NCBI GenBank assembly: GCA_008632985.1
Contig: QPGO01000109.1
Span: 1 to 64,000, forward strand
DNA from: Psammoneis japonica
Taxonomy: Eukaryota
Direction of reading: 5' to 3'
Length of the DNA stretch: 64,000 nucleotides
Below, in pieces: positions 1 through 48,930 of the stretch (the stretch's first letter is position 1; every line of letters starts with the position of its first letter). The notes beneath the pieces were generated by a model that was not told the DNA's origin, searched no databases, and was given only the letters and a program-made list of their open reading frames with translations. The translations under genes were made by a program, and so were the position numbers.

Positions 1-259
1 CAATTTGCTGTTGCTGTCACAATTCTGCCTTTGTTTCACGGCCATGCCCTCTGCGTGGTTTTCTGCGCAAGCTCTGGCGCAGATGTCGCCTTTTTTGACG
101 GTGCAATGACGGCTTTCACCTGCCTGTTCAGACGTGTTCCTTTGTCAACATGCCATTGTTCTGTGATCATTGACAATCTTGTGCAGTGGAGAACGAATTG
201 CACCCAGCTCTCTTGGCTCAATCGCTCGACGTTTTTCTTGGTGTTTTTTGTTCTCGCGT

Positions 260-960
260 GCAAAGTTTCCACACAGGTCTCAGTGCAAATTCTGCGTGTT
301 CTGCAAGTCATTTCAGACGGACGACTCATCAAACTGCCGACTGCTCTCTCTCCATGCCTCTCAAGCATCAACGACCCCCCTTCTCTCTGTTGTCTGTTCA
401 AGTTTCCTGTGTTGTGTGGTGAACATCTTCCTGTCGTTGTTCCTTTCAGAAGTTTGAAGAAGAGACCAACTCAGTGTGCATTGGCCAATCTTCCTTGTGC
501 CGACAAGTCCACACAAGTTTCAGTGCAAGTTCTGCGTGTCAAGGAAATGTTTTCAAACGGCCGATCTCCCAATCACTCGACCGCTCTCCATCCACACCTG
601 CCAAGCTCCAAAGACCCCCCCTCTGCCTGCTGTCCTTTCAAGTTCTCTGCTTCATGCAGTGAACACCCTTCCATCTTTGCTGCTTCCAGAAGTGTGAATT
701 TGAGACCAACTCGGCTTGATTTGGCTTTTTGCCTTTTTGCCAATGCTTCCTGCCAAGTTCCTGCGCGAGACTCAGCACAAGTTCTGCATGTCATGAAAAC
801 ATTTTCTGATGGCCTGTTGTCCGATCATCTGACGGCTCTCCATCCATGCCTGCCAAGCTCCAGTGACTCCCCCTTTCCTCAGTGCCTTTTTGAGTTCTTT
901 GCTCTATGTCATGAACTCCTTTTTGTTGTTGCTGCTGCCAGAGGTTTGATTTTGAGAACA
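260..960. repeat. Three diverged tandem copies of a ~245-bp unit
   Basis: 'cagtgcaaattctgcgtgt' ~281, 'cagtgcaagttctgcgtgt' ~521, 'cagcacaagttctgcatgt' ~773, each with similar downstream sequence. Confidence 0.65.
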
Positions 961-1139
961 AATCGGTGGCTGGTGATGTTTTGGTCCCTGTTTGTGAAAT
1001 TTACGGTGTTTGCTCTGTTTCAGATCCCTTCTCACTTTGGAGTGTTCCAACATGGCTTGCTTCAGTGGAATGATCAGATCCAGTCAGAAGCAAAGAGCCA
1101 CTCCATTGCTGTGGTTTCAAGTGCTTTGAAGGTGCCAAA

Positions 1140-1531
1140 TCAATTTGCCGTTGCTGTCTGCGACACTGCTCCCAGCTGTTCCGGCGGGCATCATCATTTG
1201 TTGGTGACGCCCATCTTGGCTGGTCGCAATGCATTCCTGCCGCACACATGTGTGCTGGGGGTGTGGGTCAGCTTGTTGCCGGAGTTGCAGGGTGGAAGCG
1301 CAGCAGCACTTCAAACACAGAATTTTGGTTTTGTTTTTAATTTGCTGTTGCTGTCTGTGACACCACTCCCAACTGTTCCTGGCGGGCATCATCATTTGTT
1401 GGTGACACCCATCTTGGCCAATCGCAATGCATTCCGGCCACGCTGTTGGTGCGCTGGGGGTGTGGGTTGGCTTGTTGCCGGAGTTGCAGGGTGGAAGTGC
1501 AGCAGCACTTTAAATGCAGAATTTTGGTTTT
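1140..1531. repeat. Tandem duplication of ~195 bp
   Basis: 'ggcgggcatcatcatttgttggtgac...gttgcagggtggaag...agaattttggtttt' at ~1183-1332 and ~1381-1531. Confidence 0.75.
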
Positions 1532-1761
1532 GATGCCATGGCGCAAAAGGAGGAAGCGCACGCATGTGCCAGTGAGCGCCAAGGGTCAGTGAAGTCTGAT
1601 GGACAGGCAATGATGATGAACGCGACCAGGTGTGTCGCTTCAATTCATTCACACCAAACATCTCATCATGACGAGAACGCCATTGTGGACACTGATGACG
1701 ATGATTCTCTGCATCGCCACCTGGTTGCTCAGGCAAACGCATCTCCCACAACAACATTGAG

Positions 1762-2157
1762 GACGCGCTCCAGCTCTGGGTGGGACCTTGCACTGCTGAG
1801 CTGTGACATGTTTGTTTTTTGTCATCCGTCGCATGTTTCACGCGCACATTTCTGCGTGCTCTGTCACAAAAAATTGTTCCACACCCCTTTTTTTGCGAAG
1901 CCAAAGGCTTTCTGTTGACTGCACTCATGTTGACAAAAACACTCTGGGTGTGTTCTTCAATGTCTGAAGAACACACCCGGGCATGCTGCAAAGCACGTGT
2001 TTCAAGTGTGGAGGAGGAGATGCGTTTGCAAAATTGCCTCTTTTTCTGTTGGCGATCATTCACATGTTCATTGCCCAATGATTTTGCTGCAGAGCTTGCA
2101 CGCAGAATTCTGCGGGCCCAATGTCACAAAAAGTCCCACCTGGGGCTGGAACCCATC
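1762..2157. mobile_element. MITE, GAC...GTC family, copy 1 (396 bp), TSD TGAG
   Basis: TIR 'gacgcgctccagctctgggtgggac' / 'gtcccacctggggctggaacccatc'; TGAG at 1758-1761 and 2158-2161. Confidence 0.9.
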
Positions 2158-2259
2158 TGAGGGAGACGGGCTGCACAACCGGTGCAACCCAGACATCCAC
2201 CTGGATTGTGCCAAGCGGAAATGGGTGCATGCACTGTTGACCTGAAGTCGTGCATCAAC

Positions 2260-5200
2260 CATCACACCCGAGATGCTCTCCAAGAGGTGGAACATTGGTT
2301 TGACAGCCACCAAGAACACCCTCAGAGTGACGACCCAGGCAGGGGTCCGCAATGTCTGTGTGCCATCCGAGTGGAAAGTCTGGAAGAAAGCCCCGTGGCT
2401 TGAGTTCCCTGCTGTCAAGAGACACTTCTGCTCTGGCCAGATGTTTTCGAAGGTCAGGTCAATGCATGGCAAGATGGGAGGAAGCGCATTTGCCAACAGA
2501 AGAGGGCATGACAAGCTCCATCCTTGGAAGAGAAACAGGACCACCCGAATGCCATCATGTCTTTTGTGCATGACGTTGGCATTCCGCAAGTCCTTGTGTT
2601 GGATGGTGCACCGGAGATGGCAGAAGGCCAGACCAAGGAGATTTGCAAGGAATGCAGGATGCACCAGGAGGTGTCCACCCCGCACAGCCCCTGGCAGAAC
2701 CTGGCCGAGGCATCCATCCATGAGTTGAAGAAGAGAGTCCGAGTGACTCTGCGCCGGACTGGTGCTCACAGGCGACTTTGGTCCCGCAGTGCCAAATGGA
2801 CATGTGATGTCCAACGCATGATTGTGACTGCCAGCACATCAGACATGGGAGGACGAGTCCCAGAAGAAGAGGTGACAGGTTCAACACCTGACATTTCGTC
2901 GCTCTCTCTCTTTGATTGTTGTCAACCTGTCTGCTGTCACATGCCTGTGGCAGAGTTCCCACACAAGAAGAAGTGCATCGGCCATTGGCTTGGAGCAGCC
3001 GTCAACTGCAACTGCGCTGACGACATGGCATTTGTCATCCTCCCCGAATCAGGCAGACCCATCATTTGGAAAGATGTGCGGGCCATGCCGGAGGATGACC
3101 TTAAAACTCTGGCGATCAAAACGGATCTTGCGTCAGTCAATCAGGCCTTGATCGAATGACTTAACATCCCGGAACAGGGCGCCAATGCTGACTTCCCTGA
3201 ACTCCCTGATGACTTCATGGACGAGTGGGGCAATGCTGTCAAACCCATGGAGCCCGATGCTTCCAAACCAGAAGCTGATGAGCACACCCCGGAGGGGCCA
3301 GATGAACACCTCACAGCTCAAGTCATGTCACCACGTGGAGGCCAGCTGACTCATGCTGGGGTCATTGCACGCAAATGAGATGATGACGGGGTTCCCATTG
3401 GCGCTGGGAATGACAACCCTGTCCCAGACTTGAGGACACACGATGTGGAGTTTCCTGATGGATCCACTGTTTCCTGTGCCACTGACACAATTGCAAAGAA
3501 CCTGTTCACTCAGATGGACTCTGAAGGGAATGACTGCCAGATCATGAAGGAGACAGTCAATCACCAATGTGATGCCCGTGCCACAATGGCTGATGACAGG
3601 TGCATGACAACTGAGACTGGCAGGCATGCTCCTGGGAGGATGACTGCAGGCTGGGACCTGCAAGTCAAATGGAAGGACGGGACTGCATCCTGGGTTCCCC
3701 TCAAGGATTTGAAGGAATCTGACCCAGTCGAGGTTGCTGAGTGCGCTGCAGCAAACAAGGCAGCTGGTGGGCCATCTTTTAACTGGTGGGTCCGAGACAT
3801 CTTGCGTCACAGGTCAAGGATCCTGAAGAAAGTCAAGTCGCGTTGCTGGAAACGCACGCACAAGTTCAGAGTTGAGCTCCCAAAATCCGTTGAGGAAGCT
3901 GTGGAGACAGACAACAGAGTGGGGGCTGACTTTTGGTTCAAGGCCATTGAGAAGGAAATGCGCAACGTCATGCATGTGTTCGAATTCTGTGATGATGACA
4001 CTGCACCGGTCGGGCACAATCACATTGATTGTCACATGATCTTTGACATCAAGAGCACCCTCCAACGCAAAGCAAGGTTTGTGGCCGGAGGCCATCAAAC
4101 CGATCCACCCAAGGAATTGACTTGTTCCAGTGTGGCATCACATGACAGCGGTGGGACAGCATTCACTGCAGCAGAGCTCTGAATGACCTGGAGGTCCTGA
4201 GTGCTGACGCTCAGAGTGCCCACTTGAACGCACACACTGAGGAGAAGTGTTGCACTGCTGCTGGCCTGGAATTTGGGAAGCACAACAAAGGAAGGCCGGC
4301 AATTGTTGTCTGAGCCTTGTGTGGTCTCAAGTCTTCAGGTGCGAGATTCAGGGAACACATGGCAGCCACCTTGCATGACGCTGGGTTCGAGTCTTGCAAG
4401 GCTGACCCGGATGTCTGGATGTGAGCTGCGGTCAAGCCAGGTGGCTTCAAGCACTGGGAACATGTGCTTGTGTGCATGGATGACTTGTTGTGCATCTCCC
4501 ATGAACCTCAGAAGGTCATGGATCATGTGAGCTCCAGGCATGGGCTCAAGGATGGAAGTGTCTGCGAGCCGGAAGAGTGCTTGGGTGCCCAGATCAGAAA
4601 GTGCCAGTTGTCTGACTTGGATGGCAAGACGCGCTGGGCCATGTCCTCTGACCTTTGTGTCAAAAGGGCATTGGCCGATGTTGAGTTGGAGCTCAAGAAA
4701 ACTGGCGGGCCTTCCGACAAAGGTGTTGATGCCCTTGAGCTCAGGGCATGGGCCTGAGCTGGATGGCTCACCTGAGTTGAGTGCCAAAATGGCCAACTGC
4801 TGCCAAGGCCTTGTTGGTGTGCTGCGATGGACAGTTGAGCTGAGGCGAGTGGACATTTTTGTCGCTTCCTCACTCATGTTTTCCTGCTTGGCAGCACCAC
4901 GAGTTCAACACCTGGGCGAGGTGCTCCATGTCTTTACATGCTTGAAGGCTTGCTCCAAGTCTGCACCAGTGTTCGACGACGCTGAGCCGGTCTTTGATGA
5001 GAGTCGTTTTGCCAAGTGCAACTGGGGAGAACATTGTCCTGGTGCGGCTGAACCAATTCCGCCGAACATGCCAGAAGCACGTGGGAACAGCATGACTGCT
5101 GCTTGCTTTGTTGGCGCTGATCATGCCGGATGCTGTGTGACGTGCAGGCCCCACGCTGGGATCCTGACATTCAACAACAAGCTCCCATCTTGTGTTGCTC

Positions 5201-5560
5201 TGAGCGGCAGAATGCCATGGAATCATCCACTTTTGGGTCGGAGTTCATGGCAATGAAGACTGCAGTGGAGCAAATTGAAGCCTTGCGTTGCAAGCTTCGG
5301 ATGCTGGGAATCCCCGCGGATGGAGCCACTGATGTCGTCTGCGACAATGAAGCTGTCTTCAAGAACTCAACTGAGCCGGAGTCTGCTTTGAAGAAGAAGC
5401 ACAGTGCGATTGCCTGTCACAGGACTCGTGAGGCACAAGCCGCTGGAACAGCGTGCATTGCTTGGAAAGACGGGTGCACGAATTTGGTGGATGTGCCAAC
5501 CAAGTTTGTTGCCTGGGCTGAAGCTCCGGGAAATTGCAAGCCATGTCCTGTGGCAAGTCC
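2260..5560 (+). pseudogene. Copia A pol (integrase, RT, RNase H) with frameshifts and stops
   Basis: 'MLSKRWNIGLTATKNTLRVTTQ', 'PHSPWQNLAEASIHELKK', 'CHMIFDIK..RKARFVAGGH', 'ALCGLKSSGARFR', 'LVCMDDLLCIS' (YxDD), 'CDNEAVFKNSTEPESALKKKHSAIACHR'. Confidence 0.9.
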
Positions 5561-5706: not shown

Positions 5707-5890
5707 TGAACAAATGCTGGCACACTGTCACGAATGCTGGCAATTCACACACCATTGGCAATTGGTCCACTGTCACTCATTTGGTGGTCCCAGCAGCGTG
5801 ACATCTCACAACTGTGGAACCTGCTGATGCTGTCCAACACTCTGTCTTGTCTCACACCCAATTCTTGGTTGTCATGGCAGTGTTTGTTCA
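5707..5890 (+). repeat. 3' LTR of Copia A (184 bp)
   Basis: Starts TGAACAAA right after the PPT and ends TTTGTTCA (8-bp inverted termini, TG...CA). Confidence 0.8.
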
Positions 5891-7410
5891 ATCGCAAAGG
5901 CCAAAAAATCACAAAGGGCACAAAATGGCCAAGGGTGCAAAATCACAAAGGGTGCAAAATCACAAAGGGCGCAAAATGGCGGAAAAGGGCGCAAAATCAC
6001 AAAGGGCGCAAAATCACAAAGGGCACAAAATGGCCAAGGGCACAAATTCACAAAGGGTGCATGGTCACAAAGGGTGCAAAATCACAAAGGGTGCAAAATG
6101 GCAGCAAAGGGTGCAAAATCACAAAGGGCACAAAATGGCGGCAAAGGGTGCAAAATCACAAAGGGTGCAAAATGGCCAAGGGTGCAAAATCACAGAGGGT
6201 GCAAAATCACAAAGGGTGCAAAATGGTGGCAAAGGGTGCAAAATCACAAAGGGTGCAAAATCACAAAGGAAGCAAGGTGGCCAAGGGCGCAAAATCACAA
6301 AGGGCGCAAAATGGCAGCAAAGGGTGCAAAATCACAAAGGGTGCAAAATGGCGGCAAAGGGTGCAAAATCACAAAGGGTGCAAAATGGCCAAGGGTGCAA
6401 AATCACAAAGGGCGGAAAATGGCGGCAAAGGGCTCAAAATCACAAAGGGTGCAAAATGGCCAAGGGTGCAAAATCACAAAGGGTGCAAAATCACAAAGGG
6501 TGCAAAATGGCCAAGAACGCAAAATCACAAAGGGCGCAAAATGGCGGCAAAGGGCACAAAATCACAAAGGGCGCAAAATGGCGGCAAAGGGCACAAAATC
6601 ACAAAGGGCGCAAAATCGCAAAGGGTGCGAAATGGCAGCAAAGGGTGCAAAATGACAAAGGGCGCAAAATGGCGGCAAAGGGCGCAAAGTCACAAAGGGT
6701 GCAAAATGGCCAAGGGTGCAAAATCACAAAGGGCGGAAAATGGCGGCAAAGGGCTCAAAATCACAAAGGGCGCAAAATGGCCGAGGGCACAAAATTACAA
6801 AGGGTGCAAAATCACAAAGGGTGCAAAATGGCAGCAAAGGGCACAAAATCACAAAGGGTGCAACACAGCGGCAAAGGGTGCAAAATCACAAAGGGTGCAA
6901 AATGGCCAAGGGCGCAAAGTCGCAAAGGGCTCAAAATCACAAAGGGTGCAAAATGGCCAAGGGTGCAAAATCACAAAGGGTGCAAAATGGCCAAGGGTGC
7001 AAAATCACAAAGGGCGCAAAATGGCGGCAAAGGGCACAAAATCACAAAGGGCGCAAAATGTCGGCAAAGGGTGCAAAATCACAAAGGGTGAAAAATCGCA
7101 AAGGGTGCAAAATCACAAAGGGAGCAAAATGGCCAAGGGCGCAAAATCACAAAGGGTGCAAAATGGCAGCAAAGGGTGCAAAATCACAAAGGGCGCAAAA
7201 TCGCAAAGGGTGCAAAATGGCAGCAAAGGGTGCAAAATCACAAAGGGCGCAAAGTGGCGGCAAAGGGTGCAAAATCACAAAGGGCGCAAAATCGCAAAGG
7301 GTGCAAAATGGCAGCAAAGGGTGCAAAATCACAAAGGGCGGAAAATGGTGGCAAAGGGCTCAAAATCACAAAGGGTGCAAAATGGCCAAGGGTGCAAAAT
7401 GGCGGCAAAG
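5891..7410. repeat. Minisatellite of 17/20-bp units (caaaatcacaaagggtg, caaaatggccaagggtg, caaaatggcggcaaagggtg)
   Basis: Directly visible ~1.5-kb tandem array. Confidence 0.95.
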
Positions 7411-9770: not shown

Positions 9771-9871
9771 CCCCCAAACCCCAACCCCCAAACCCCAACC
9801 CAAGGCCCCAACCCCAACCCCAACCCAACCCCAACCCTGACCCCAACCCTGATCCCAGCCCTGACCCCAAC
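9771..9871 (+). repeat. Degenerate telomere-type (CCCTAA)n array reading CCCCAA/CCCTGA
   Basis: 'ccccaaccccaacccaaccccaaccctgaccccaaccctgatcccagccctgaccccaa'; shorter arrays at ~10965-11005 and ~30335-30364. Confidence 0.75.
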
Positions 9872-9955
9872 ACGGTTGGCAAGGAGCTGGGCCACGGCGA
9901 CGCCATGCACAGGGTCGAATTGATCCTGCCAAAGCTGGCGTCCATTCGAGGGGAC

Positions 9956-10131
9956 TGAGTGAGTGCAGTCACACTGTCGCTGAACATGGCATTTGGCGAA
10001 GACCATCACTGTCGCTGACACAGAGGGTGGCACAGAACAACCTTGCAATTTTCTGGAACCTGTTGATTGCTGCACCAACATTTTCTGTCGCATCTTGTCA
10101 AATTCCCAGAGACTGCAGCGTGAATTGCTCA
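9956..10131 (+). repeat. Duplicated 3' LTR of Copia B (176 bp) with PPT
   Basis: Preceded by 'gaggggac'; TGAG...CTCA ends; followed by TTGC and the same flank as 29589-29764. Confidence 0.9.
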
Positions 10132-10900
10132 TTGCAATGGCACCAGTGCCCCTCACTGCCAGACGCCAGGCTTCGCGGATGCTTGACTTGAACATTGGTC
10201 AAGCCATGGCCAACCAGCTGCGCAGTCTGTGGGTCAAACAAGTGTCTGCATGAAAAGTTCACCAGGCTGTCTCCAGACTGCCCTCTCAAATGGAACATCA
10301 TGACGGAGTCAACTTTTCACATTGCAGTCAACTTGTTGGTTTTGCACGTCCTCAGTCGGCATCACCCTGAGGTGATGTTGTGCCAAAACAACTTGCAATG
10401 GTGCCAGTGCCCCTCACTGCCAGACGCCAGGCTCTTCGCGGATGCTTGACTTGAACATTGGTTGAGCCATGGCCAACCAGCTGCGCAATCTGTGGGTCGA
10501 ACAAGTGAGATGCTCCTCCACTGAGCTGAGCAACTCGGATCGATTGCAAGCTGAACAATTGCCTGCCTTGGAATGGATGGCTTGTGCTTCTGCCTTGGCG
10601 CCACGGTGCTGTGAGGACTTTCTTGTGCCCAGATTGTGCCCATGTGCAGTGTTGTCATGGAGTGTTCCCACCATTGGAGCCACACAAAACTGCCAATCGC
10701 AGCGGCCCAATCTGAGTGCTTTTCCATGTTCAACAAGGAGCGGCACAATCCAGTTGACAGCGAGCATGATGGCTGAGCTTTGTTCCACAAAGACGAGAAG
10801 CGCCCATTAAAAATCTGTCTCCAACCAATTTTGTCTTGAGCTTGAAACACTGCCGCAGCACTTTGATGGACATTTGCTGAGCACAACACCTTGTCGTGAA
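10132..10900 (-). pseudogene. C-terminal fragment of a non-LTR (LINE-like) ORF; paralog at ~29765-30280
   Basis: 'QAQDKIGWRQIFNGRFSSLW...WAAAIGSFVWLQWWE' resembles the QxxIGWxxxxxGR..W tail of diatom non-LTR elements (from memory). Confidence 0.55.
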
Positions 10901-11008
10901 ACCAACACACAAAAAACATTGTCATGTTGACAGACAAGATGTCATGTGCCAAAGATTCAGAAACAAACCCCAACCCCAAACCCAACCCCAAACCCAAGCC
11001 TGACCCTT

Positions 11009-11470
11009 TTTGCATTTTTGCATTTCCACATTTCCGTGTTTTCGTGTTTTTCTGCATTCCCACATTTCTGCATTTCTGCACTTCTGCATTTCTGCATTTT
11101 TGCATTTCCACATTTCCACATTTCCACATTTCTGCATTTCCGCATTTCCGCGTTTGGGCATTTTCGCATTTCCTCATTTCCTCATTTTCGAATTTCCGCA
11201 TTTCCGCATTTCCGCACTTTTGCATTTCCGCATTTCCGCATTTCCGCATTTTCGCATTTCCGCATTTTCGCGTTTTCGCATTTTCGCACTTCTGCACTCA
11301 CGCATTTGCGCATTTTCGCACTTCCGCATTTTCGCACTTCTGCATTTCCGCATTTCCGCATTTTCGCATTTCCACATTTTCGCGTTTCTGCATTTTTGCA
11401 TTTTCGCACTTCTGCACCCGCGCATTTGCACATTTGCACATTTGTGCATTTGCGCTTTTGTGCGTTTGTG
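11009..11470. repeat. 8-bp satellite (tttYcgca)n; also ~12435-12550, 13429-13530
   Basis: Visible 'catttccgcatttccgcattttcg' arrays. Confidence 0.95.
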
Positions 11471-12119
11471 CACCTCCATGCACTGAAGGGACACAGCCCA
11501 CTGGCAAGGGCGCTGATCAAACAAGATTTGTGGTGCAAGTGTTTGGGGCTGGGGGTGCCAGAGCAAAGCCAACGGGGCAACTGCCACAAATGCCTTGGGA
11601 AAGCAGAGCAGGGTTTGTTGCTTCAAACAACACATGTGTTTGGGCAGAATGGAGTGCAGCGCCGGTGGTGTGGACGGCAACACAAGGGAAGGAGACGAGG
11701 AGGCATGCGCCCACAAAAATGGAGCTGACGTGGAGCGGACACATCAGCAACAAAAGAGACATCACCTGCAGCTGTGGATTGAAGGACACTCATGATGAAA
11801 CCAGGTCAAGCAAAATGGCTTCTGTGGCACGTCAACAAAAGCGTGCGTGGTGCGGGAATGGTGCACTGGGGGAGAGAGGTTGACATGCTCACCCAACATG
11901 CTGTGACCCCCAATGTGCAGAGCCGAGGATGAGCACATCATGGGGGACAAATGGGCTTCCCCATGGTGCAGAGACGGATTTCACTGATTTGTCCCCTCGC
12001 GCGCCGCATCTTGGCTTTTTTGTAAAGTGCAACAACAACAACATGAGGGCAACTGTGACAACAACTTGAGTCACAAGGGTGGCACAACTGCTGCCGCTGC
12101 CACCGCCATTTTTCCATTC

Positions 12120-14010
12120 ATGATTTTGTGCCCTTGACCACTTTGCGCCCTTTTTGATTTTGTGCCAATGGCCGCCTTTTTTGCTCTTCCTGGTTTTTTG
12201 CCGTTGGCCACTTTGTGCCCTTTGTGCCTTTGTGACTTTTGCACTGTCCTTGGCCAATTTGTGCCCTTTGCAACTTTGTGCCCTCAGCTGCCACCACGCA
12301 CTCTCGCTCCGTTCAGTGATTTTTTTTGTGCCCCAGGAAAGTTTGTGCCCTTTGTGTTTTTGTGCCCTCAACTCCCATTTTTTGTCATTTTTTGTTTTGT
12401 GCCCTTGGCCATTTTGCACCTTTGAGATTTTGCGTGCATTTTCGCATTTTCGCGTTTTTGCATTTTTGCGTTTTCACATTTTCGCGTTATCGCATTTTCG
12501 CACCCTCGCTTGCACTTTCGCATTTTTGCTCGCATTTTCGCACTCTCGCATTTGGCGCTGGGGGCACCTTTGAGATTTTGTGCCCTCAGCCATGTTGCGC
12601 AATTCTTGGTTTTGTGCTCTTGACCTTTTTGTGCCCTTGGCTGCTTTGCGCCCTTTTCTTTTTTTGTGCCCTTGGGCACTTTGCCCTGTCTCGTGGTTTT
12701 GTGCCCTTGGCCATTTTGCGCCCTTTGCAACTTTGTGCCCTTTGCCATTTTGTGCCTTTTTTGGTTTTGGGCCCTCAGCCGCATTTGGTGCCCCTCATGA
12801 TTTTGTGCCTTCAGGAATTTTTGGCCATTGTGGTTTTGTGCCTTTTGCCGTTTTGGACCCTTTCTGATTTTTTGCCCTTGGCAGCTTTGTGCCCTCAGCC
12901 ACCATTTTGCACCCTCAGTCATTTTGTGACCTCAGCAGCTTTGTGCCCCTGCCTGGTTTGTGCCCTTTGTGGTTTGGCGCCCTCAACAGAATTTTTTGTC
13001 CTTTTTGATTTTGTGCCCTTGGCCATTTTGCTGGTCACGACAGAGCTGCGGAACAACAAGAACCTGCCCGATGAAGAGCGCGGGGCAAAGAAGAGAAAGT
13101 GCGCGAGATGCCTGAAGTGCTTCGTGGCAGAGAACTCCAAGAACGGAGACGCGGAATGGAGCGCACCCAGGGGACGCAAAAAGGAGGATTTTTGCAGGAA
13201 GACTGTGGCAGAGTGTGGCAGGAAAGTGGGGGAGGGGGGCAGCATGTTGGGGAGCGAGGAAAGCCACGTGACGGGCTGCGCTGAGATGCGTGGGCTGGAG
13301 CCAGCACCTGTTTGGCAGACAATGTGTGAAAAGCGGCAGTCACGCTTGTTGCAAATGACATTGCAGACACAATCTAAATTGAGCGGCTGTGCTCCACGGC
13401 GCCAGCTGGAGAGCAGCTGGAGAAGGGTGCATTTTCGCATTTCCGCATTTTCGCATTTCCGCATTTTCGCATTTTCGCATTTTCGCATTTTCGCATTTTC
13501 GCATTTTCGCATTTTCGCATTTTCGCATTTGGCGCTGGGGGCACCTTTGAGATTTTGTGCCCTCAGCCATGTTGCACAATTCTTGGTTTTGTGCCCTTGA
13601 CCTTTTTGTGCCCTTGGCTGCTTTGTGCCCTTTCCTTTTTTTGTGCCCTTGAGCACTTTGCCCTGTCTCGTGGTTTTGTGCCCTTGGCCATTTTGCGCCC
13701 TTTGTGACTTTGTGCCCTTTGCCATTTTGCGCCTTTTTTGGTTTTGGGCCCTCAGCCGCATTTGGTGCCCCTCATGATTTTGTGCCTTCAGGAATTTTTG
13801 GCCATTGTGGTTTTGTGCCTTTTGCCATTTTCGACCCTTTCTGATTTTTTGCCCTTGGCAGCTTTGTGCCCTCAGCCACCATTTTGCACCCTCAGTCATT
13901 TTGTGAGCTCAGCAATTTTGTGCCCCTGCCTGGTTTGTGCCCTTTGTGATTTGGCACCCTCAACAGACACCTTTTGTCCTTTTTGATTTTGTGCCCTTGG
14001 CCATTTTGCT
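12120..14010 (-). repeat. Degenerate reverse-complement copies of the 17/20-bp minisatellite, interleaved with other repeats
   Basis: Recurring 'ttttgtgcccttggccattttg', the reverse complement of the 5891-7410 unit; paralog ~31575-32400. Confidence 0.85.
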
Positions 14011-14409
14011 GGTCAAGACAGAGCTGCAGAACAACAAGAACCTGCCCAACGAAGAACGCGGGGCAAAGAAGAGAAAGTGCGTGAGATGCCTGAAGCACTT
14101 CACGGCAGGGAACTCCAAGAACGGAGATGCGGAAGGGAGTGCACCCAGGAAACGCAAGAGGGAGGATTTTTGCAGGAAGATTGTGGCAGAGCGTGACAGG
14201 AAAGTGGAGGAGGGGGGCAACGGGTTGGGGGATGAGGAAAGCCACGTGGTGGGTTGCACTGAGACAAATGAGCTGGAGCCAACACCTGTTTGGCAGACAA
14301 TGTGTGAAAAGCGGCAGTCACGTTTGTTGCAAATGACACTGCAGACACAATCTAAATTGAGCGACTGCACTCCACTGCGCCAGCCGGAGAGCAGCTGGAG
14401 AAGGGCACA

Positions 14410-14950
14410 ACACAAGCGGCGCTTTGGGAAGCCAGCCAACCGATCTGTTGTCAGCCAGCTGTCCAATGTGTTTGAGTGGGTGCGCCAGAGTTTTTGGCCC
14501 GTTCGCTTTCTGCATGGCCTGGAACAACCCAAATCTGTGCAGACTCAGTGCGCTTTGCCCTGCAGAACAGTTTTTGGGAGTGTTTTCTGGCTCGCGGCTC
14601 AAAATGACATGCAAAACAGCACGGACAATGGTGTTTTGCCAAATTGAAAAATGCGATCATCTCTGAGGTCGGAACCTGGATGCTCTCAACAGAGTTTGAC
14701 ACATTGCGTCATCTTCTGCAAGACAAGGTCAAGAACATCCAGGTTCATGTGGGTGGATCATGGTGAAAATTCTTGCTGAAGGCTCGCATTGACAACGTCG
14801 CTTCTGTTGCATCACGACCAACCTTGTGCATTGCCATTCATGCTGTGTGTTTTGTCGGGGCTTTGTGCGCTTGTGACCGTTTGGCTCATGCGCGATTTCT
14901 CTTTCTGCGCTGTTCTTTTGTTCTGCAGGGTCTCCGTTGTCGCGAGGCAT
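14410..14950 (-). pseudogene. Possible Harbinger/DDE_Tnp_4-like transposase fragment; paralog ~32810-33340
   Basis: Minus strand 'KTHSMNGNAQ', 'HPGSDLRDDRIF', 'VCTDLGCS' loosely match K.HS.N.Q / PGS..D / D.GY if Tyr is restored. Confidence 0.25.
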
Positions 14951-15635
14951 CTGACAGAATTCGAAGAAGAGCTGGATGCCGGCATGTCACTCTCTGGCTG
15001 AAACACATCCAGCTGCTGTGTGCAAAAAGCCTCTCAACTTGAGCTGTGCGGCAAATGGTCCAGCTGGCAACCGGCTGCTTGATGGCCTGGGCTCGAATCC
15101 TGGGCATCGCATTTTTCAAGTCGTTGGGTCGGATTTGGTCGAGTTGGTCAATCTTGATCAAATCCTGTCATGGCACGATTCTCAGAGTGACGCGCGTGTC
15201 TCTCTGTCTCAAAAACGGGGCATGCCTGCCTCGGGGGGACAGCATTGTTGGGAAGCCCCCCGCAAAACAGTCGGGGCAGAATGGGGTGTTGCCAGTGTGC
15301 AGAGGGCAGCCGCTCAGCATGCTTTGAACAAGGGGGGTGCAAAAAATTGCCCAGGGAGTTTGGAATCTGTCAGCGATGCAGTCGACATCAGCGCGCTGTG
15401 GGGAGTGCCATGCACTGCAACGAGAGTCCATGTTTGAGCCCTGTCTTCAACTCCGGCATCAAAGATGTGGGTGGGTCCCTTGACAGCAGCGGAGCTGTGT
15501 GACAGGAGTGATTCAACCTGCCCGTCCAAATGATCCTGGGTGGCTTGGAAACCTTGTGGGGGCGATTCGGTGACAGCCACATCTGACAGATTCACGACAC
15601 ATGGGGAGTGACAGAATTTGAAGAAGAGTTGAATG

Positions 15636-33882: not shown

Positions 33883-36800
33883 TGGGCTCGAATCCTGGGC
33901 ATCGCATTTTTCAAGTCGTTGGGTCAGATTTGGTCGAGTTGGTCAATCTTGATCAAATCCTGTCATGGCATGATTCTCAGAGTGACGCGCGCGTCTCTCT
34001 GTCTCAAAAATGGGGCATGCCTGCCTCGGGGGGACAGCATTGTTGGGAAGCTCCTGTGAAGCCGTCGGGGCAGAATGGGGTGTTGCCGGTGTGCAAAGGG
34101 CAGCCACTCAGCATGCTTTGAATGAGGGGGGCGCGAAAAATTGCCCAGGGAGTTTGGAATCTGTCAGCGATGCAGTCGACATCGGCGCGCTGTGGGGAGT
34201 GCCATGCACTGCGGCGAGAGTCCATGTTTGAGCCCTGTCTTCAACTCCGGCATCTAAGATGTGGGTGGGTCCCTTGACAGCAGCGGAGCTTTGTGATGGG
34301 AGCGATTCAACCTGCCAGTCCGAATGATCCTGGGTGACTTAGAAACCTTGTGGGGGCGATTCGGGGACAGCCACATCAGACAGATTCGTGACACATGGGG
34401 AGTGACAGAATTCGAAGAAGAGTTGAATGCTGGCATGTCACTCTCTGGCTGAAACACATCCAGTTGCTGTGTGCAAAAAGCCTCTCGACTTGAACTGTGC
34501 GGTGAATGGTTTGGTTGGCAACCAGTCACTTGATGACCTGGGTTCGAATCCTGGGTGTCGCATTTTTCAAGTCGTTGGGTCGGATTTGGTCGAGTTGGTC
34601 AATCTTGATTAAATCCTGTCAGTGTCCCAGAGACACTTTTTCTTGTCAAGAATGTTGCCTCTGAAGTGCGATGGCCACGGCAATTCAATGACGAAGCCAA
34701 GTCACAGACACAGCATCAGGAAGAGTTCATGACAAACATGGTGACTTGGAGCCATGATGTCTTAAGCTGGGTGAGCTCTCAAGAGCTCAAACACATCGTC
34801 ACGCAGTTTTGACAACATTTCTCCCCAACTGTCCATGGTGATGCAGAGTTTGATTTGGCAGACCAGTGCATCATGGTGGTTCTAAGGGCAAAGATTGCTT
34901 CTTTTGGCTGTGAGGCAGTTTGCAACCTGGAAACATCACTGCAGATGAGATTCACTTCATCCATGCTCTGAATGTTTTAATCAGAGCAAAGCTTTGTTTA
35001 AATCATCACATCACAACGCAGCATGTTCAGATCAAAATGCAGCCAATCAAGGCAAAAACGCCTGCGCAGAGCACAGTCAGAGCAATTTTGGTTGTTCGGA
35101 GCTTGTGAAATTTGTTTGGAGCATTGCACTCAGAGCACGATTTTTTGCAAAGTAGAGCACTGAGCTGACATTCAGAGCATTGCTGCGATCATTTCCATTT
35201 GATCAGAGCACGACTCTGAACATGTTTTGAAGTGCCCCACCATTTCCATTTAATTGCAGCACAACCACTCACACTCTGAACAATGCCAGGATGCCCATTC
35301 AAACAGAGCACAACTCTCGACAAAGTTGTCGATGCTCCGAATGACCTCTTTTGGACAACAACAAGCTGCGCAGTGCTCTGAATAAAACTTTCATTTAAGA
35401 AGCTGTGCTTCAATTAACTCTGGTTGACAAACACATCCACCGAACTCCGATGCATCGTGTCGTTGCGGCGATGTGTGACATGTGTGTTGTTGCTGCAACA
35501 ATTTGTTCTCATTGCATGTCCTTGTCTGTCGGCACTGTCGTTTGTCAGATGCTGCTGACATGGCCTTTTGATGACACTCCTGACACAATGCAAACATGCA
35601 TTTGCAAGAACCATTCAATGCATTCATGCAAACCCACACCGCCTTTCTTTTTCCCACCTTGCAAATGCTTGATCCAAAAACAACGTCACACTTGTCGCCA
35701 CAGCACTTTGTTGGGAAGAGTGGGTTTGTTTTGAAGCACACTTGAGTGAAACATTTTCCATCATCTTGATGGACCAAGGCATGGATCAAGTGAGCCTCCT
35801 TGCACTTGCACTGTGAACACAGACAAAGAAGTGCAATTGGTTGCTGTGCATGGACCAGACAAAGCAACAACAAGGCATCAACAACGTTTGTTCTCTGCCT
35901 GGGAATTGCAATCAGTTGCTTCATTGGCTCCAGCAATGACGAGCATTGCACTTTTGAGGTGACGTTTCTTTGTTGCCTTTTTTGTGACAAACAAAAAAAG
36001 TGAGAAGTGTTTCCAACGTTTTGCGCACAATCCGTGTGCATTTTTCTCATGCATTCTCACCATTTTCATTTGCAATTGATCCAATGGCATGGATGGATTG
36101 CCCGGTTGAGTCTGTCAAAATGTGCCGGCATGATGCCAACCAAAGGCCGTTAGATCAATTTCTCAATTTCAAACCGGAGCAACGACGGCGCTCTCACCTT
36201 TTTGTTTGCACCATTGACAATCATTGCATTTGCCTTTCTCATGACAAACAATGAATGTTTGAGACGTGCCCAATCAATTGCACAATTTGTCACAAGACAA
36301 CATGTGATCTTGCCATCTTCTGTGGCACTGTCCTCCGCGTTTCAGTCACTGGGTGTGGCTGAGTCTGGTCTCCAGCAATGCAATGATGCCAAGTTAGAGC
36401 AACAGCCCACATCGGCAACTGGAGCACCAACGATGCTCTCACCTTTTCATTTGCCCAGTGGCAACTGCCTTGTCTGCCTTGGCACAAACAATGGCAGCTG
36501 CACGAGATGCAATGATGCGCGTCAAGCCTCACAACTGCCTGTTTGCTCACCCTTTCTTTTTGCACTCACTCCATCATTGTTTCAGGCATTGGCGATGGTT
36601 GAGTCTGGCAAGCAGCAACACAATGACAACAATTGATCAAAGCAACAATCTACATCGACAACTGCTGGAGCACTGACAACGTCCTCACCTTTTGTTTTTT
36701 GCCAGTGGATGCCATCTCATTTGCCTTTGCATGAACCACATTGTGAGAAGCGTGCAATCAACCGCCCATGTGCATTCGCAGAACAACAATGTGTGCTTGC

Positions 36801-41299: not shown

Positions 41300-44200
41300 A
41301 TTTTTTGGTGTTGGAACAGCAACCATGGCGCCGTGTGACCTGTTGGTTGCCTCTCTGTTGCAAGACAACAATGATTCCCACCTCGAGGAGGCCGCATTTG
41401 AATCTCTCTTTGCCAATGGTTTTGGAGTGATTGATGGCAACGAGCGGAGCCATGTCAAAGCGACAATCAAGATGGTGAAACCCAAGGTTCAGTTTCACCG
41501 CGATTCCACTTGTGACCCCTCTCTGAATTGGATCGCGCTTGCCTGTGTGTGGCAAAAGTCGAAGGGCAGACCTCATTTTTTTGCAGAGCTGGTGGCTGTG
41601 AACCACATTGTTGCAAAGGAACTTGGGCACAAGAGCTTGCTGCACTTTCTTTCCGCAAAAGGATGGAGTCATTCCAGTCAAGGCACCAAACATCCTCATG
41701 CATTGGAGCATCACCGTGCTCCCAAAGCAGAGGATGTGAAAGTCGTCGTTGACAAGGCAAAATCAACAGACATTGCAACCAACATGATGGCAAAGATTTC
41801 CATGTTGTGCAAGCTTCTCCATGATCCCGGATTGTGCAACCCAAAGGGAGAGCCACTTGTCAAGCACATCAAGCTGAGAAGTTTTGAAGAGAAGGTTTTG
41901 CGTTGTGTGCAACACCTTCACATTGGTTTTTTGATTCTTCGTGAAAAGATTCTGCCGCACGCACCTGAAAGGAATGGTGATTGCGATTGTTGGCTGTGCT
42001 CCCTGTTCGGCGAATGTGACAAGACATCAACTTGCATCAACTTTTTGGAGAATTTCCTGGCTCTTGGTCACTGTGAGACAACTTAAGACGAATGCCCTGT
42101 GTCCTTCCCTGAACTCATAAAGTCGTTGTTCCATCAACACAAACATTCTTGGGGACAGCCCATGCGACCAGCAATGCTCGATGTTGAGCGAGAACAAATG
42201 CACACAACACATGTCGATGAGACTCTTTTAAGATGTGTGAAAATTGATCGTGTGGTTTCTGCCACTGACGATTCCGGCAAAAGCAAGGCCACAAGGGATT
42301 GTTTTGAGGCAGTGTGGAAAGCCAGGCTTTGTGACTTTGCCACTCAGTGCAAGAAGAAAGAAATCGGCAATGCAATTCCATCTGTTGCGAAAAATGCTCG
42401 GAAACAAAAAAATCCAAATGGTGTGAATCCATCACATTGTTTGATTGATTGTTTGTGCTCCTCTTCTCATCTCCAATTCTTCCATTCTTCTTGCCACCTC
42501 TTTAGCCACCTCCCTTTGCTCCTCAAGCCCCAGTCTCAAAAACCCCAAAGATGGCGAACCTTCTGATGTTTCTCAGAACAAATCGTGGATTCTCCAAGAT
42601 GTGCCGACTCTCAAGGAACAATTTGAATGTTCCCGAACAAAGTGGCCGACCCTCGGCACAACTTGTCAGTCGCCTCCTCCTCCGCCAGACAATTTCACAA
42701 AAGAAGAGCTTGTGAAAGTGTTTCCTGAACCATCTCCGTTTGCAATTCTGGGTGAGGTGAAGTCACAACATTCTCACCTTGTCGTCTTTGAGGAAACCCC
42801 CATTTCCGGCTCCTTTGAGGGGAACTGTGTCAAGCACCAGTTGTTCCACAGCATCTCCGATTTCTGCTTGGTGAATCACCTCCGCAAGTTTAAGCATGGA
42901 TTTGAAAACGGCACAGCTCCCAATGATCCGACGCAAGAATCGATGGTTGCGATCACTCACCTGACCCAGTCAACCTCTCATTTTTCCGACGCGGTCACTT
43001 GTTTGCGATGCACGGACAAGATGTGTCAGAAGTGCTTTTTTGGATTGCGATTCAGTGTGTTGTCGACACTCCGTGCAGTGTTGGAACATGGCGAGCCAAA
43101 CAAAAAAAGGGATGGACCAGAATGCAAGTTGTGCTGTCGGATCTGTTTTGGTTGTTGTGGCCAGAATTGCGAAGTCGCAGATGGTGAGTTAGCTGAAGTG
43201 GGACCTGCTCACAAGCCTGGTGCTGTCTTTGGCAGGGACAAGTGGGAGAAGCTTCCAAAGGATGTGCGTGCAATGATGGCCTCAATCTTGGATGCCGTGC
43301 AACTCTGCAAGGATGAAATCAATCTTGTTGCATTGAAAGAAATGCGTTCCTTCCATGACCCGCACCGTGACAGTCTTTTCGCGGCTGAGCTCCGTAAGAT
43401 GGTTGGAGCCAAGCATTTTAGAAGGGAAGGCGTGGAAATTCAAGTTAAGTGCATCTCGTCATCTGGCAAAAAATCCGTTGATTCGGACACCGAGCTGCAC
43501 ATTGACAAAGAGGATTGTGACATGGATGGGTGCAGCAAGACTGGTGCTCTTTGCTTGTCACTGCGAGACGCTGTTGGTCGCTCTTGGTCATTGAAGGTTG
43601 TCACTGCATCCAAAGGCAATGCTGGAAACCATGTCAGTTCGGTGCATGGGCATGCCGAGTTCCGATTGTGCGTGCATGGTCATTTCGCAAAACTTGATCT
43701 GTCACATGCTGCAGAAATGATGAGACACCGTGGCCCTTGTCGTCCTCCGTCGGGCAAGCCAGCCCACAGAAACATCAAAGATTTTTTCCTTGACCCTCAC
43801 TCTGTGTGGGTGGAAGAGGAAATTGGCAAGCCAAATCTTCCGTCCGACACAGTTGAGCATCCCGTTGTTGTCATGCCGAGGAAACGTCTTCTGTTTGCCA
43901 TCGTGGAGGACTTCAATTTGTCGCGCGGTTGTTTGGCAATCATCGACAACCTCGATGAGGTTGGTGTGTGCAATTGCTTTCATTGCACCATTGTGGCTGG
44001 GTGTCAAACAGGATTCTCCCATTTTTGCTGCTTGTTGCGCAACACAGATGCTGTGAAGCATCCTTTTGTGGCTGGCGATTGTGCCCCTTCATCACTTCAG
44101 AGAAGCTGCGAGGCTGTTTGGCAGCATTGTGGGGGATCACAACAACCGACGCATGCAGAGCCCGGGACTTGATTTCGAGGAGGTTCATGTGGCAGAGTGC

Positions 44201-45867: not shown

Positions 45868-46578
45868 CAGATCCAGACGCGCACCCCATTTTAGAAACAA
45901 ATCTGACCAACACTTCCTTCTGTCCTGTGCAGCCCAAACAAATGGGGCCTTTTCTTGCGCTTCTGCTGCTCCTGGACATTGTTCACAAACCAAAACATTG
46001 TCCCCAATTGCTTTGACAGGGACAACCCACAACTCAGGTGAGTGCTGAGTCTTCTCAGGCATTGAAAGCCAGCTGTTTTGTTTGTGATCAAGCTGCCAGC
46101 GACTGACCAAGTCTGCATGCTGATGCCGTTGCCTCATGGTTCTCTGGTCAATGTTGACAGGGCCTTCATCAAGACTCATGCTCGTCGTCCTTGTCTTGTG
46201 GATGAGAAGGGAAAAGAAGAACAACACGCAAAAAATGGCGGGAAAATGGCAAACATTGCATTGTCTTCCAGATTTGGATGATTCTTGTGGGTGTGACGTG
46301 TCTGCACTTTGATCTTTTGTCTGGCATTTACAGCAAACATTGTTCTTTTTCATTCACTGTCAAAACAAAGGACATTGTCTCCGTTGGAACGCAATGACAG
46401 CCACATCAAAAAGTGAGTTGGACTGTTCATTGTCACACACAAATGTGTTTTCAAATTTCAACGTTGCTGACAACAATTTGTGCAATGTCACAGAGAAAAA
46501 TGGAGTGGCTGGCTGTCTCAACACAACCCAGACGATGGCTGCACTGTCGAACAGTGACACTGCTCTCATTGTTGCCGT

Positions 46579-47640
46579 GTGAAGATCAAGATGTTGTCTC
46601 CAGCACCACCGGCAAAGAAGAGAAAGAAAAATGAGACTGTCAAGCCAATGAGCCCAAGACTTCAGGCAGTGTTGAAGAGAACAGGTGCGCAGGCAGCGCA
46701 TGGTGCATTGAAATCAGAAGCAGAGAAGGTGGCTAGAAATGATCTCTTTCCACAGGTGAAGTTTCTCAGTCCATCAGAATTGGCAAGCAATGGGAGCGTC
46801 TCAATGTTTGTCAAGAAACAGATTGCTGGTGGCAACATGGACACTTCAAATTGGTCAGGAACTTGGGAGGAATGGGCAAAAAAGGCGGTAAAAAGGCAAA
46901 TTGACAATCGCAGAAACACGGTGTGTTCGGCCATTGGGGCAGAGGCAATGGCCCGTAAGTCAAGTGACCAATGTGTGTGATTCGAGAGTTGCGCGCATCT
47001 CACAAGAAGATGACGGTGATGCTTCATCCATGCAGGCATTGTCGCTGAGGAAGAGGGAAAGGAAAAAGAAAAGAAACTCAAGGCGGCAGTCAGGAGGAAA
47101 AAGCAAAACAGGAAAAAGTCAAGCCGTGACAAGAATGAAGAGAATGATGTCCCGTTTGTGCCGACATGGGATCCGTCTGGCCTGGACACTGTCACCGGCG
47201 GCAAACGAAGGAACAAGCAGGCGTGCAAGTGGTTCTGTGATCACATCCCACCTCAAACCAAGCAAAAGCAGGCATGGAGTCGCGCCGTCAAAACTGGGAA
47301 GCACAGGTCTCACAGTTGTTTGCGGCAGGTGACGAAGCTTTGGCGCCATCAGCCATGGAGAATCGCTGGCAGGTGTGGGCATGCAGGAACAAGGAGGAGG
47401 CGGTGGAAGAATTGGGTGAGGAAATGGAGCCCAAAGAAACAAGGCCTGCCCCTCGGCACACGAAGCCAAAGAAACAACGAGTGTCTTGGGGAGACGACGG
47501 AGTCATTCGGTTCAATGATTTGTGCAAAGAGGTGACGAAAGACAGAGACTCCAAGGAGGGCAAGGAGTTTGAAAAGTGGTGTGCAGAGATCAAGAAAAGC
47601 AAGTGCGAGAAGTCCGGAGAAGCAAAAAAGAAGAAGAAGA
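46579..47640 (+). pseudogene. Degenerate repeat-associated ORF family; homolog of 16900-17660
   Basis: 'RNDLFPQVKFL...RQIDNRRNTV', 'DEALAPSAMENRW', 'GVIRFNDLCKEVTKDR'. Confidence 0.55.
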
Positions 47641-47645
47641 CAGCA

Positions 47646-48034
47646 GACGGGTTCCAGCCCCAGGTGGGACTTTTTGTGACATTTGCCCCGCAGAATTCTA
47701 CGTGCAAGCTCTGCAGTTCATGCTCTGGTCAATGGATGTGTTCATCTTTGACAGAAAATGAATGGCCAAGTTTGCAGCACACACATCTCTGTTCGCACTT
47801 GAAGTTTTGGACAATGCGCCTGCCCTGCGCCATTCTTGAGACACTCGAGAATGGCGCAGAAGAAAAAAATGTCAAAAGTTGTTGAATGGATCGCCTGACA
47901 ATTGTGCTGTAAAATGATGCAAAATTTTGCCAAAACCACGTAGAAATGTACGTGCGCGACACACGACGCAATTCAAAAAACTGTCGATGTCACAGTTCAG
48001 CAGTGCGAGGTCCCACCCAGACCTGGAACGCGTC
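47646..48034. mobile_element. MITE, GAC...GTC family, copy 6 (389 bp), TSD AGCA
   Basis: 'gacgggttccagccccaggtgggac...gtcccacccagacctggaacgcgtc'; AGCA on both sides. Confidence 0.92.
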
Positions 48035-48930
48035 AGCACCGACCGGTGATGCGGAGAAGGTGAAGGCAATGAACAGCCTGATGGTGGAGAGCAGCAGAGA
48101 CGACAACAGCAACGACAATGAGCAGGAGGAAGGCGCAAAAGGAAAAATGAATGATGGAGGAGATGAATCCGATGAAGACCAGTCCAATGAAGACGAGTCC
48201 GATGATGATTGTCAGCTCAGTTTAAGAGAGTTGCAGCAAGAAAATGTGCGCACAGTTGACACAGCACTCGGTCATTGCACTGCAGACGTGACAAGGAATT
48301 GACTTAACCAACAAAATGTTTTTCTCGTTTAAAATGATGTTTGCGAAAATTAACAAACCAAGGTTTGTGTGGCAATGCAATCGCGCATTGGCATGTGGCA
48401 AAAAGGTGGAGGCAGAAATGGCGATGTGGACACAGTGAAAAACAGCACACACAATTCTCAACAAGTTATTGCAACATTGGCACACCAAACTTGTGACCAG
48501 AGGTTGGCCTGTCATCACACGACAACAACATTTTGCAACATTTTAACAAATTGTCATCATGCAAATCTGCACATTTTTAACATTTCGTGCACTCTGATGC
48601 TCAGAATGCTCCGACATTTCTTCCTCATTGTTGGCAACTGAATTTCTTTAATTTCCGTGCAATTTCAAGCAAACAAGCATTGTGGGGCACTTCGAATGTT
48701 AATGATGCAAGGAGCTGATTGTCAGCACATGATGCACTTACGATGGCCTTCGAAACACTTCCAGCTTCATGGTGAAGGTTTCGGGTTGAGAAAAAAATGC
48801 GCAACCTTCCGCTGCGGTCTTGCCGTCACAAGTCTACTCAAGATCTTGGTGCTATTTGTTTTGGCCTGCTATTGTCATAAACCTCGCTTCTTACTTCCAC
48901 ACAACATTCAATCAATGCACACATTAATCA

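Follow-up and report, generated by a model that had tools for sequence, protein, structure and literature searches.

In fungal repeat-induced point mutation (RIP), C is changed to T, mainly at CpA to give TpA, so that TpA is created, and duplicated sequence is needed for the process. The subject of this report is a footprint of the opposite sign, the near-absence of TpA from transposon remnants and satellites, in a stretch of 64,000 nucleotides of Psammoneis japonica (GenBank assembly GCA_008632985.1, contig QPGO01000109.1, positions 1 to 64,000 of the forward strand), hereafter the window. The closest described system is that of the alga Bigelowiella natans, in which Mettrop et al. report that integrated viral DNA is hypermutated de novo from TpA to TpG/CpA (bioRxiv 10.64898/2026.01.13.699255). 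In mutation-accumulation lines of this alga, 231 of 302 new nuclear mutations fell in an integrated giant virus and virophage, and 230 of the 231 in the viral regions were A→G or T→C, all on TpA according to the authors, the rate exceeding the background about 1000-fold (bioRxiv 10.64898/2026.01.13.699255). The main text of the preprint further describes 124 clusters of windows in the genome that are poor in TpA, rich in TpG/CpA and enriched for reverse transcriptase (RT) and DDE domains, and names an ADAT2 homologue as an untested candidate, the only one published for this spectrum (bioRxiv 10.64898/2026.01.13.699255). An earlier note on the P. japonica stretch, made from the letters alone, had proposed repeat-targeted TpA→TpG/CpA hypermutation and knew of no description of it; in this it has been overtaken, as the B. 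natans preprint reports the exact spectrum de novo (bioRxiv 10.64898/2026.01.13.699255). A full-text literature search, whose coverage leaves out most subscription journals, returned no report from a diatom and no report of TpA hypermutation beyond B. natans.

The footprint in the window is carried chiefly by one long block:

1 to 48,650, no strand: continuous TpA-depleted, CpG-poor, TpG/CpA-rich block of transposon remnants and satellites, with 158 TpA

The depletion of TpA is real and far beyond chance. The 158 TpA of this block compare with 3,072 predicted by base composition and 1,954 by the frequency in the adjacent host genes, and each of the 24 bins of 2 kb between 1 and 48,000 has a TpA observed/expected ratio (O/E) of 0.01-0.10, with 1-12 TpA per bin, as against 0.37-0.59 in the genes. 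The near-absence of TpA over about 48 kb that the earlier note had described is thus borne out (158 against some 1,950 expected), and its by-eye counts stand up well: two TpA in the first kb (at 905 and 1,002), four in the first of two Copia elements and nine at 49,021-49,320, within a gene. Its coordinates held for the block and were too narrow for the phenomenon, as TpA O/E is also 0.0-0.13 at about 51.7-54.7 and 55.6-56.4 kb and, in a partial form, 0.18-0.40 at 60-64 kb. Over 1-48,650, O/E is 0.05 for TA, 0.56 for CG, 1.60 for TG and 1.63 for CA, and AA (1.33), TT (1.36) and AT (0.87) show no depletion, being as plentiful as had been claimed; for ApA the O/E of 1.33 in the depleted DNA compares with 1.12 in host DNA, and for ApG the two values are 0.91 and 0.92.

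Measured against the host-gene frequency, 1,796 TA and 870 CG are missing from the block and 1,489 TG and 1,182 CA are in excess, so that the TpG plus CpA surplus (+2,671) balances the TpA plus CpG deficit (-2,666). This balance implies that about two-thirds of the surplus came from TpA and about one-third from CpG decay. What is left of the host frequency is 158 of 1,954 TpA and 1,689 of 2,559 CpG, and on a log scale, assuming host-like starting frequencies, the loss of TpA is about six times that of CpG. About 92% of TpA has been removed, at saturation, along with every conserved tyrosine codon.

The effect on coding sequence is best read from two retrotransposon remnants within the block, the second of which is flanked by a pair of direct repeats:

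2,228 to 5,504, plus strand: Copia A, an integrase-RT-RNaseH remnant with frameshifts and a stop; colinear by tblastn with residues 295-1356 of protein P0124
25,794 to 29,365, plus strand: Copia B, a gag-pol remnant with one in-frame TGA and a frameshift; tblastn match to residues 21-1356 of P0124
23,479 to 23,654, plus strand: direct repeat upstream of Copia B, possibly a piece of a long terminal repeat (LTR); partner at 29,588-29,763 with 84% identity
29,588 to 29,763, plus strand: direct repeat downstream of Copia B; partner at 23,479-23,654

By their alignments, both pol-bearing elements have the Ty1/Copia layout, with an RVT_2-type RT and the integrase upstream of it in one polyprotein: P0124 carries RVT_2 at residues 892-1087 (E=3.7e-19), and in the window's elements the RT motifs are preceded by SDGAPE and P[CH]SPWQN, which are integrase-like. 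Copia A retains four TpA (O/E 0.023) and Copia B 11 (O/E 0.057); repeat comparison within the window found no flanking direct repeat of Copia A. Motifs in which tyrosine would be expected are altered, as the earlier note had pointed out, and all of the forms that it listed were found (ALCGLK, CMDD/HADD, WCSKRQ, IACHR and PHSP/PCSP), with ALCGLK, CMDD, IACHR and PHSPWQN in Copia A. When conserved positions are defined as alignment columns with Tyr in at least 70% of 18 full-length Copia relatives, the window's Copia fragments keep Tyr at none of 30, with Cys at 13, His at eight and other residues at nine, while the corresponding figures for retained Trp, Phe and Lys are 25 of 26, 20 of 22 and 27 of 32. 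Cys or His therefore stands at 21 of the 30 positions, the outcome anticipated for a spectrum made up almost entirely of A:T→G:C changes. The 566-residue open reading frame (ORF) of Copia B contains 0.00% Tyr, compared with a median of 3.45% in its 150 best relatives.

Relatives of these elements do not share the deficit. Among the best-scoring 80 of 506 related Copia loci from metagenomes, a sample that favours intact copies, TpA O/E is 0.25-0.91 and at least 0.54 in 78, and only 7 of their 1,532 windows of 1 kb have a TpA O/E below 0.2, all of them in two loci (L072 and L073). Because relatives have normal TpA, the Copia lineage does not natively avoid it, and native avoidance of TpA by the transposon lineage, one of the circumstances that the earlier note had named as fatal to its own reading, is ruled out by the normal TpA and Tyr of these relatives. 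The two exceptional loci are one Copia element on two JGI metagenome contigs, with about 34% protein identity to those of the window, and they show the footprint a second time: in L072:1-1500 and L073:1250-3750 Tyr is 0.2-0.3%, His 4.7-5.0% and TpA O/E 0.10-0.30 (0.25-0.30 at the level of the locus), and ATAC and ATAT together make up 0 of 82 TpA in L073. Their relatives L058, L061, L074 and L076 have 4-5% Tyr, and related elements of the same sample series are intact. Two proteins from ENA metagenome assemblies, P0229 and P0242, are the only ones with less than 0.8% Tyr among the 150 best Copia relatives and show Cys or His in motifs that otherwise have Tyr, as in VAEHAV compared with VAEYAV in the consensus of intact relatives; these may be further instances of the process.

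The replacements also report on strand preference, since Cys in place of Tyr points to mutation of the sense strand and His to mutation of the antisense strand. Cys and His occur 13:8 in the Copia fragments and 9:9 in a Mutator-like ORF described below, or 22:17 when pooled (P=0.52), and TG and CA O/E are 1.60 and 1.63; both strands are mutated equally, without strand bias. The copies were mutated separately. At five of the six shared Tyr columns at which both Copia A and Copia B carry Cys or His, Cys stands in one and His in the other, and the 196-bp alignment of the Copia B repeat pair holds 11 CA/TG double differences, compared with about three from CpG decay alone (Poisson P=3e-4), together with one TA/TG difference.

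The neighbouring bases of the TpA that remain, of which 157 have both flanks available, point to an extended motif. TTAA accounts for 51 of the 157 against a baseline of 5%, ATAC and ATAT together account for none against a baseline of 18-25%, and the ratio of survivors to TG/CA forms drops from 0.078 at TTAA to 0. In the survivors alone, preferences for the base before T and for the base after A are not separable; they can be separated through the Tyr codons, where a T-A-pyrimidine target on the mutated strand predicts a difference in codon flanks between His and Cys outcomes. A purine precedes the codon in 16 of 17 His outcomes and in 9 of 22 Cys outcomes (Fisher P=7e-4). These counts suggest that the mutated A preferentially precedes a pyrimidine (T-A-Y), TTAA being the slowest context to mutate and the one that survives best.

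Four host genes lie to the right of the block and provide the internal comparison:

48,928 to 49,866, plus strand: alpha/beta hydrolase gene (Abhydrolase_5, E=2.9e-38), Tyr 4.8%, TpA O/E 0.5-0.65; an unaffected control
50,492 to 50,935, minus strand: PEMT/ICMT-like methyltransferase ORF (PF04191, E=1.4e-11), Tyr 7.4%; unaffected
56,517 to 57,905, plus strand: xylose isomerase gene, Tyr 4.6%; unaffected, and a taxonomic marker
58,038 to 59,252, minus strand: TraB family gene (PF01963, E=8.6e-16); unaffected, and a taxonomic marker

Their TpA O/E is about 0.6 (0.62 computed for host genes), and Tyr makes up 1.7-7.4% of their products. The xylose isomerase is 70-71% identical to those of Nitzschia, Epithemia and Fistulifera, 66% to that of Chaetoceros and 62% to that of Triparma, and all named matches of the TraB family gene are diatoms, at 40-51% identity; these matches, none of which is identical, identify the host genes as those of a diatom.

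What is targeted can be judged from three further features that interrupt the genes:

51,700 to 54,700, no strand: unannotated island depleted of TpA (O/E 0.0-0.07) and CpG (O/E 0.16-0.35)
54,700 to 55,616, no strand: non-coding, unmutated TA-rich element of 917 bp with terminal inverted repeats, inserted in the island
55,620 to 56,400, no strand: continuation of the depleted island, with zero TpA at 55,526-56,258

Abundance was gauged by the summed word depth of contigs of sequencing run X1, which is not a copy number. It is 250-53,000 over 38-48.6 kb, against about 55 over the genes (gene contigs 54-61). At the island of 51,700-54,700, the depth of X1 contigs is 37-62, with readings of 66-229 in three of four depth bins, which is roughly single-copy depth; no Pfam match and no recognisable coding remnant were found in it. 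It has the lowest CpG O/E of the window (0.16-0.35, compared with 0.56 in the 48-kb block), and it may be the oldest insertion here. The TA-rich element, by contrast, lies in bins of high summed depth (1,900-4,000) and is spared: it has 76 TpA (O/E 0.85) and a CpG O/E of 1.29, whereas the flanking 250 bp on the left and 730 bp on the right have zero TpA. Its inverted repeats start GACTTGTTCCAGACTT and GAGG flanks it on either side, and it resembles a miniature inverted-repeat transposon. The element would be younger than the last activity of the process, or not silenced.

A part of the earlier note's term "repeat-targeted" therefore survives, in that mobile DNA is affected and host genes are spared, and a part does not, in that an inverted-repeat element of high depth has escaped and an island of single-copy depth has been depleted. 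Across 1-kb bins, TpA and CpG O/E correlate (Spearman 0.49, P=3e-5), and CpG depletion, which probably marks methylated or silenced DNA, is probably a better correlate than copy number. What marks the target would accordingly be its silenced or methylated condition, or its age, and not copy number.

An intermediate stage of the same change is preserved near the right edge of the window:

61,051 to 63,999, minus strand: Mutator-like (DUF6729-type) transposase ORF of 983 residues, running off the window; 42% identity to P0271

This ORF is related to two hypothetical proteins, and its nearest ESM Atlas clusters, which serve as a lead only, carry DUF6729 or Mutator. Its TpA O/E is 0.22, with 1.0% Tyr, 4.6% Cys and 4.6% His, and of the 33 Tyr of P0284 that align to it, nine are Cys, nine are His (18 of 33 together) and four are still Tyr; its sequence places it about half-way along. 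The claim that several classes of repeat are affected is thus upheld for LTR elements, with host genes spared. It needs amending for long interspersed nuclear elements (LINEs), none of which is identifiable in the window by Pfam among 283 of the 287 stop-to-stop ORFs of at least 90 amino acids, and for DNA transposons, since the sole identified DNA transposase is this partly mutated one, outside the block of 1-48,650.

The footprint is of the same kind as that left by the process in B. natans. Here too, changes are almost exclusively of A:T→G:C, restricted to TpA and present on both strands, and mobile DNA is affected with genes spared. The main text of the preprint likewise describes A→G and T→C changes only, at TpA only, with both TpG and CpA as products; they are limited to silent DNA of foreign or mobile origin, the genome behaving normally elsewhere, and its TpA-poor, TpG/CpA-rich clusters are rich in RT and DDE transposase domains (bioRxiv 10.64898/2026.01.13.699255). 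The two differ in that the process was caught de novo there and is known from its footprint here, in host (a chlorarachniophyte, of the Rhizaria, compared with a diatom, of the Stramenopiles) and in extent, the viral regions of B. natans being unsaturated (Rho TpA 0.45) compared with an O/E of 0.05 over 48 kb. A term search of the preprint's main text returned no flanking-base preference, CpG coupling or diatoms. What the window adds is the occurrence in a diatom, the saturation, transposons as targets, the T-A-Y motif and a connection with CpG-poor DNA; the extended motif may already be documented in the preprint's supplementary mutation tables.

Other known systems are more distant. RIP likewise consists of context-specific transitions on both strands that inactivate mobile DNA and leave a dinucleotide footprint, but it creates TpA by C:G→T:A changes where TpA is destroyed here, and it needs duplication, whereas here an island of low depth is mutated and a TA-rich element of high depth is spared (depth not being copy number). 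Decay of CpG driven by 5-methylcytosine is present in the same DNA (CpG O/E 0.56; 154 of 390 mismatches between two duplicated segments), yet it cannot remove TpA or turn TAY into TGY or CAY, and accounts for about one-third of the TpG/CpA surplus. Transposable elements of diatoms are reported to receive CpG methylation through DNMT5a (PMC9998398), in keeping with the CpG decay in the window. APOBEC3, which deaminates C to U in complementary DNA, and ADAR, which deaminates A to I in double-stranded RNA, resemble the present case as deaminases with nearest-neighbour preferences that mutate invading elements; their footprints, however, are strand-biased and found in retro-copied DNA only, and here there is no bias and a DNA transposon is affected. 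The earlier note's diagnosis of a TpA-specific A:T→G:C process, inexplicable by CpG decay and opposite to fungal RIP, is in agreement with these comparisons.

The source of the footprint is probably a mutator that acts on DNA in place, is specific for TpA, turns A:T into G:C and is directed at silenced mobile DNA; it would account for the spectrum, motif, strand symmetry, restriction to CpG-poor mobile DNA and sparing of genes that the window displays. In such a scheme silenced mobile DNA (the two Copia elements, the Mutator-like transposon, satellites and unannotated old insertions) would be hypermutated at TpA; the A:T pair of either strand would become G:C, yielding TpG or CpA; the process would act on chromosomal DNA where it lies, and the silenced or methylated chromatin state would guide it in place of copy number. 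The chemical step could be deamination of adenine to hypoxanthine by an ADAT2/TadA-like deaminase, the leading candidate, which we put forward tentatively. Enzymes of this type act on A34 of tRNA, beside the conserved U33, and would thus suit a preference for a 5' T.

Several observations weigh against this interpretation or limit its reach. The evidence is a footprint, no de novo event having been observed in this organism, and the 40 listed differences between copies or alleles (14 gain CpG, five lose CpG, one gains TpA and one loses TpA) are mostly CpG transitions, so that ongoing activity at TpA is not demonstrated. Between the duplicated segments, CA/TG differences number 30 against 22 expected, which is not significant (P=0.06), and the LTR status of the 176-bp pair around Copia B, whose alignment extends over only about 180 bp, is unproven. 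In the partly mutated stretch of 60-64 kb, ATAC still forms 15% of 66 TpA, which does not accord with an order in which ATAC and ATAT are lost before other contexts. Run X1 has no platform on record and possibly supplied the reads from which the assembly was made. Finally, TpA is palindromic, so the data cannot tell an attack on A from an attack on T.

It is the palindrome that gives the most substantial alternative its footing, namely that thymine is attacked and a TET/JBP-type dioxygenase oxidises the T of TpA to 5-hydroxymethyl- or 5-formyluracil, which mispairs with G and produces T→C. By symmetry this would leave an identical footprint, as R-T-A-Y reads alike on both strands; in dinoflagellates, 5-hydroxymethyluracil is found preferentially at TpA, and mispairing with G is a property of 5-formyluracil. 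The sequence gives thymine oxidation no preference over adenine deamination, we know of no such thymine modification in diatoms, and the only published candidate for the spectrum, itself untested, is the ADAT2 homologue of the B. natans preprint; we consider thymine oxidation improbable. Less probable again, and in our judgement very unlikely, is error-prone patch repair of deaminated 5-methylcytosine with polymerase-eta-like mis-insertion opposite T at WA. A→G at WA is the signature of polymerase eta, and TpA loss does coincide with CpG decay (Spearman 0.49), but such repair would be expected to deplete ApA and enrich ApG, where AA O/E is 1.33 and AG 0.91 (0.92 in host DNA), and a TpA loss about six times that of CpG is hard to square with a by-product of CpG repair. 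Polymerase eta, one of the alternatives that the earlier note had offered, is consequently disfavoured.

ADAR-like A-to-I hyperediting of transcripts, fixed by reverse transcription before integration, would draw on the preference of ADARs for a 5' U (bioRxiv 10.64898/2026.01.13.699255, Discussion) and on the fact that two of the affected elements are retrotransposons. Editing of the sense transcript gives Tyr→Cys only, however, and His is equally common (22:17); a DNA transposase, satellites and the unannotated island are affected as well, and ApA is not depleted, which together make this explanation extremely improbable. Hardly any more weight attaches to an artefact of assembly or base calling in which a modified heterochromatin base was read as G or C, a concern raised by the unrecorded platform and by the chance that the best-matching run is the assembly's own. 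Over the depleted island, each X1 contig (word depth about 55) shows 0-6 differences from the window, and none of the 14 listed differences, mostly of CpG type, restores TpA. A modified palindrome would be expected to give strand-discordant reads and not clean TG/CA accompanied by CpG depletion; frameshifts, stops and a mutual identity of 65-68% indicate that the elements of the block are old and decayed; and the same footprint is present in independent JGI and ENA metagenome assemblies. The depletion is probably not a sequencing artefact.

If the preferred reading of a chromosomal mutator acting at TpA is correct, a genome-defence-like process known from one alga in 2026 extends to a second, ecologically dominant lineage, and because some diatoms are genetically tractable, the responsible enzyme could be hunted there. 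The saturated footprint supplies features against which candidates can be tested: T-A-Y, the resistance of TTAA, the lack of strand bias and coupling to CpG-poor DNA over copy number. It is conceivable, though on the whole unlikely, that diatoms and chlorarachniophytes share an old chromatin-guided T-A-Y adenine deaminase system for duplex chromosomal DNA that is widespread in marine protists, the last part being suggested by the environmental matches. Such a shared system would be a functional mirror of fungal RIP and a natural A:T→G:C editor of duplex DNA.

The footprint also bears on annotation. Loss of TAA and TAG leaves TGA as nearly the sole stop codon (1,096 TGA, 89 TAA and 33 TAG in 1-48,650, counted at every plus-strand offset), which crowds the block with long false ORFs; of the 50 ORFs in the window that reach 200 amino acids, most lie within it, many of them overlapping on opposite strands. 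One such frame of 575 residues, at 42,445-44,169, obtained no usable match in the ESM Atlas and is probably a false ORF kept open by stop-codon loss. Gene callers would over-predict in TpA-depleted DNA, and annotation pipelines can misread it. Hypermutated transposons can, conversely, drop below Pfam detection and so escape domain-based annotation: RVT_2 and rve were not found by Pfam in the window's Copia ORFs, even at E up to 1, and intact Copia relatives score RVT_2 at 1e-16 to 1e-19. The Pfam scan, which left aside the minus-strand ORFs at 1395-2123, 2071-2838, 10365-11297 and 12922-13908, found a transposable-element domain in none of the 283 ORFs, a weak negative, since even the Copia RT was missed. 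An Rfam scan of the window gave no match at the gathering score.

The remaining features of the block, which also contains much repeat DNA that lacks annotation, are repeats:

5,890 to 7,400, no strand: satellite array with a unit of 17/34/37 bp, detected by Tandem Repeats Finder; consensus without TpA
9,772 to 9,870, plus strand: telomere-like array with 10 CCCCAA, three CCCTGA and no CCCTAA
9,906 to 16,542, plus strand: first copy of a duplicated segment, 85-96% identical to 29,539-34,936
29,539 to 34,936, plus strand: second copy of the duplicated segment, paired with 9,906-16,542

Arrays related to the satellite occur at 12.1-14.0 and 31.6-32.4 kb. The earlier note had counted satellites among the affected sequences, as they may be: the arrays do lack TpA. 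The telomere-like array may be an interstitial CCCTAA array after conversion of TpA, although its composition is ambiguous: it had been considered as an internal control of known ancestor and was downgraded because TTGGGG units are native in the telomeres of Nitzschia inconspicua, as reported in PMC8329260. The published telomere of that species, TTAGGGTTGGGG, holds the unit that a TA→TG change makes from TTAGGG (PMC8329260), which is recorded as a lead without any claim. Along the duplicated segments (about 6 kb), the 154 CG↔TG/CA mismatches among the 390 compare with only four of the TA↔TG/CA type, which indicates that the duplication took place after the loss of TpA. Both copies contain arrays of an 8-bp unit, TTTCCGCA, at 11,049-11,459 (51 copies) and 30,407-30,930 (66 copies).

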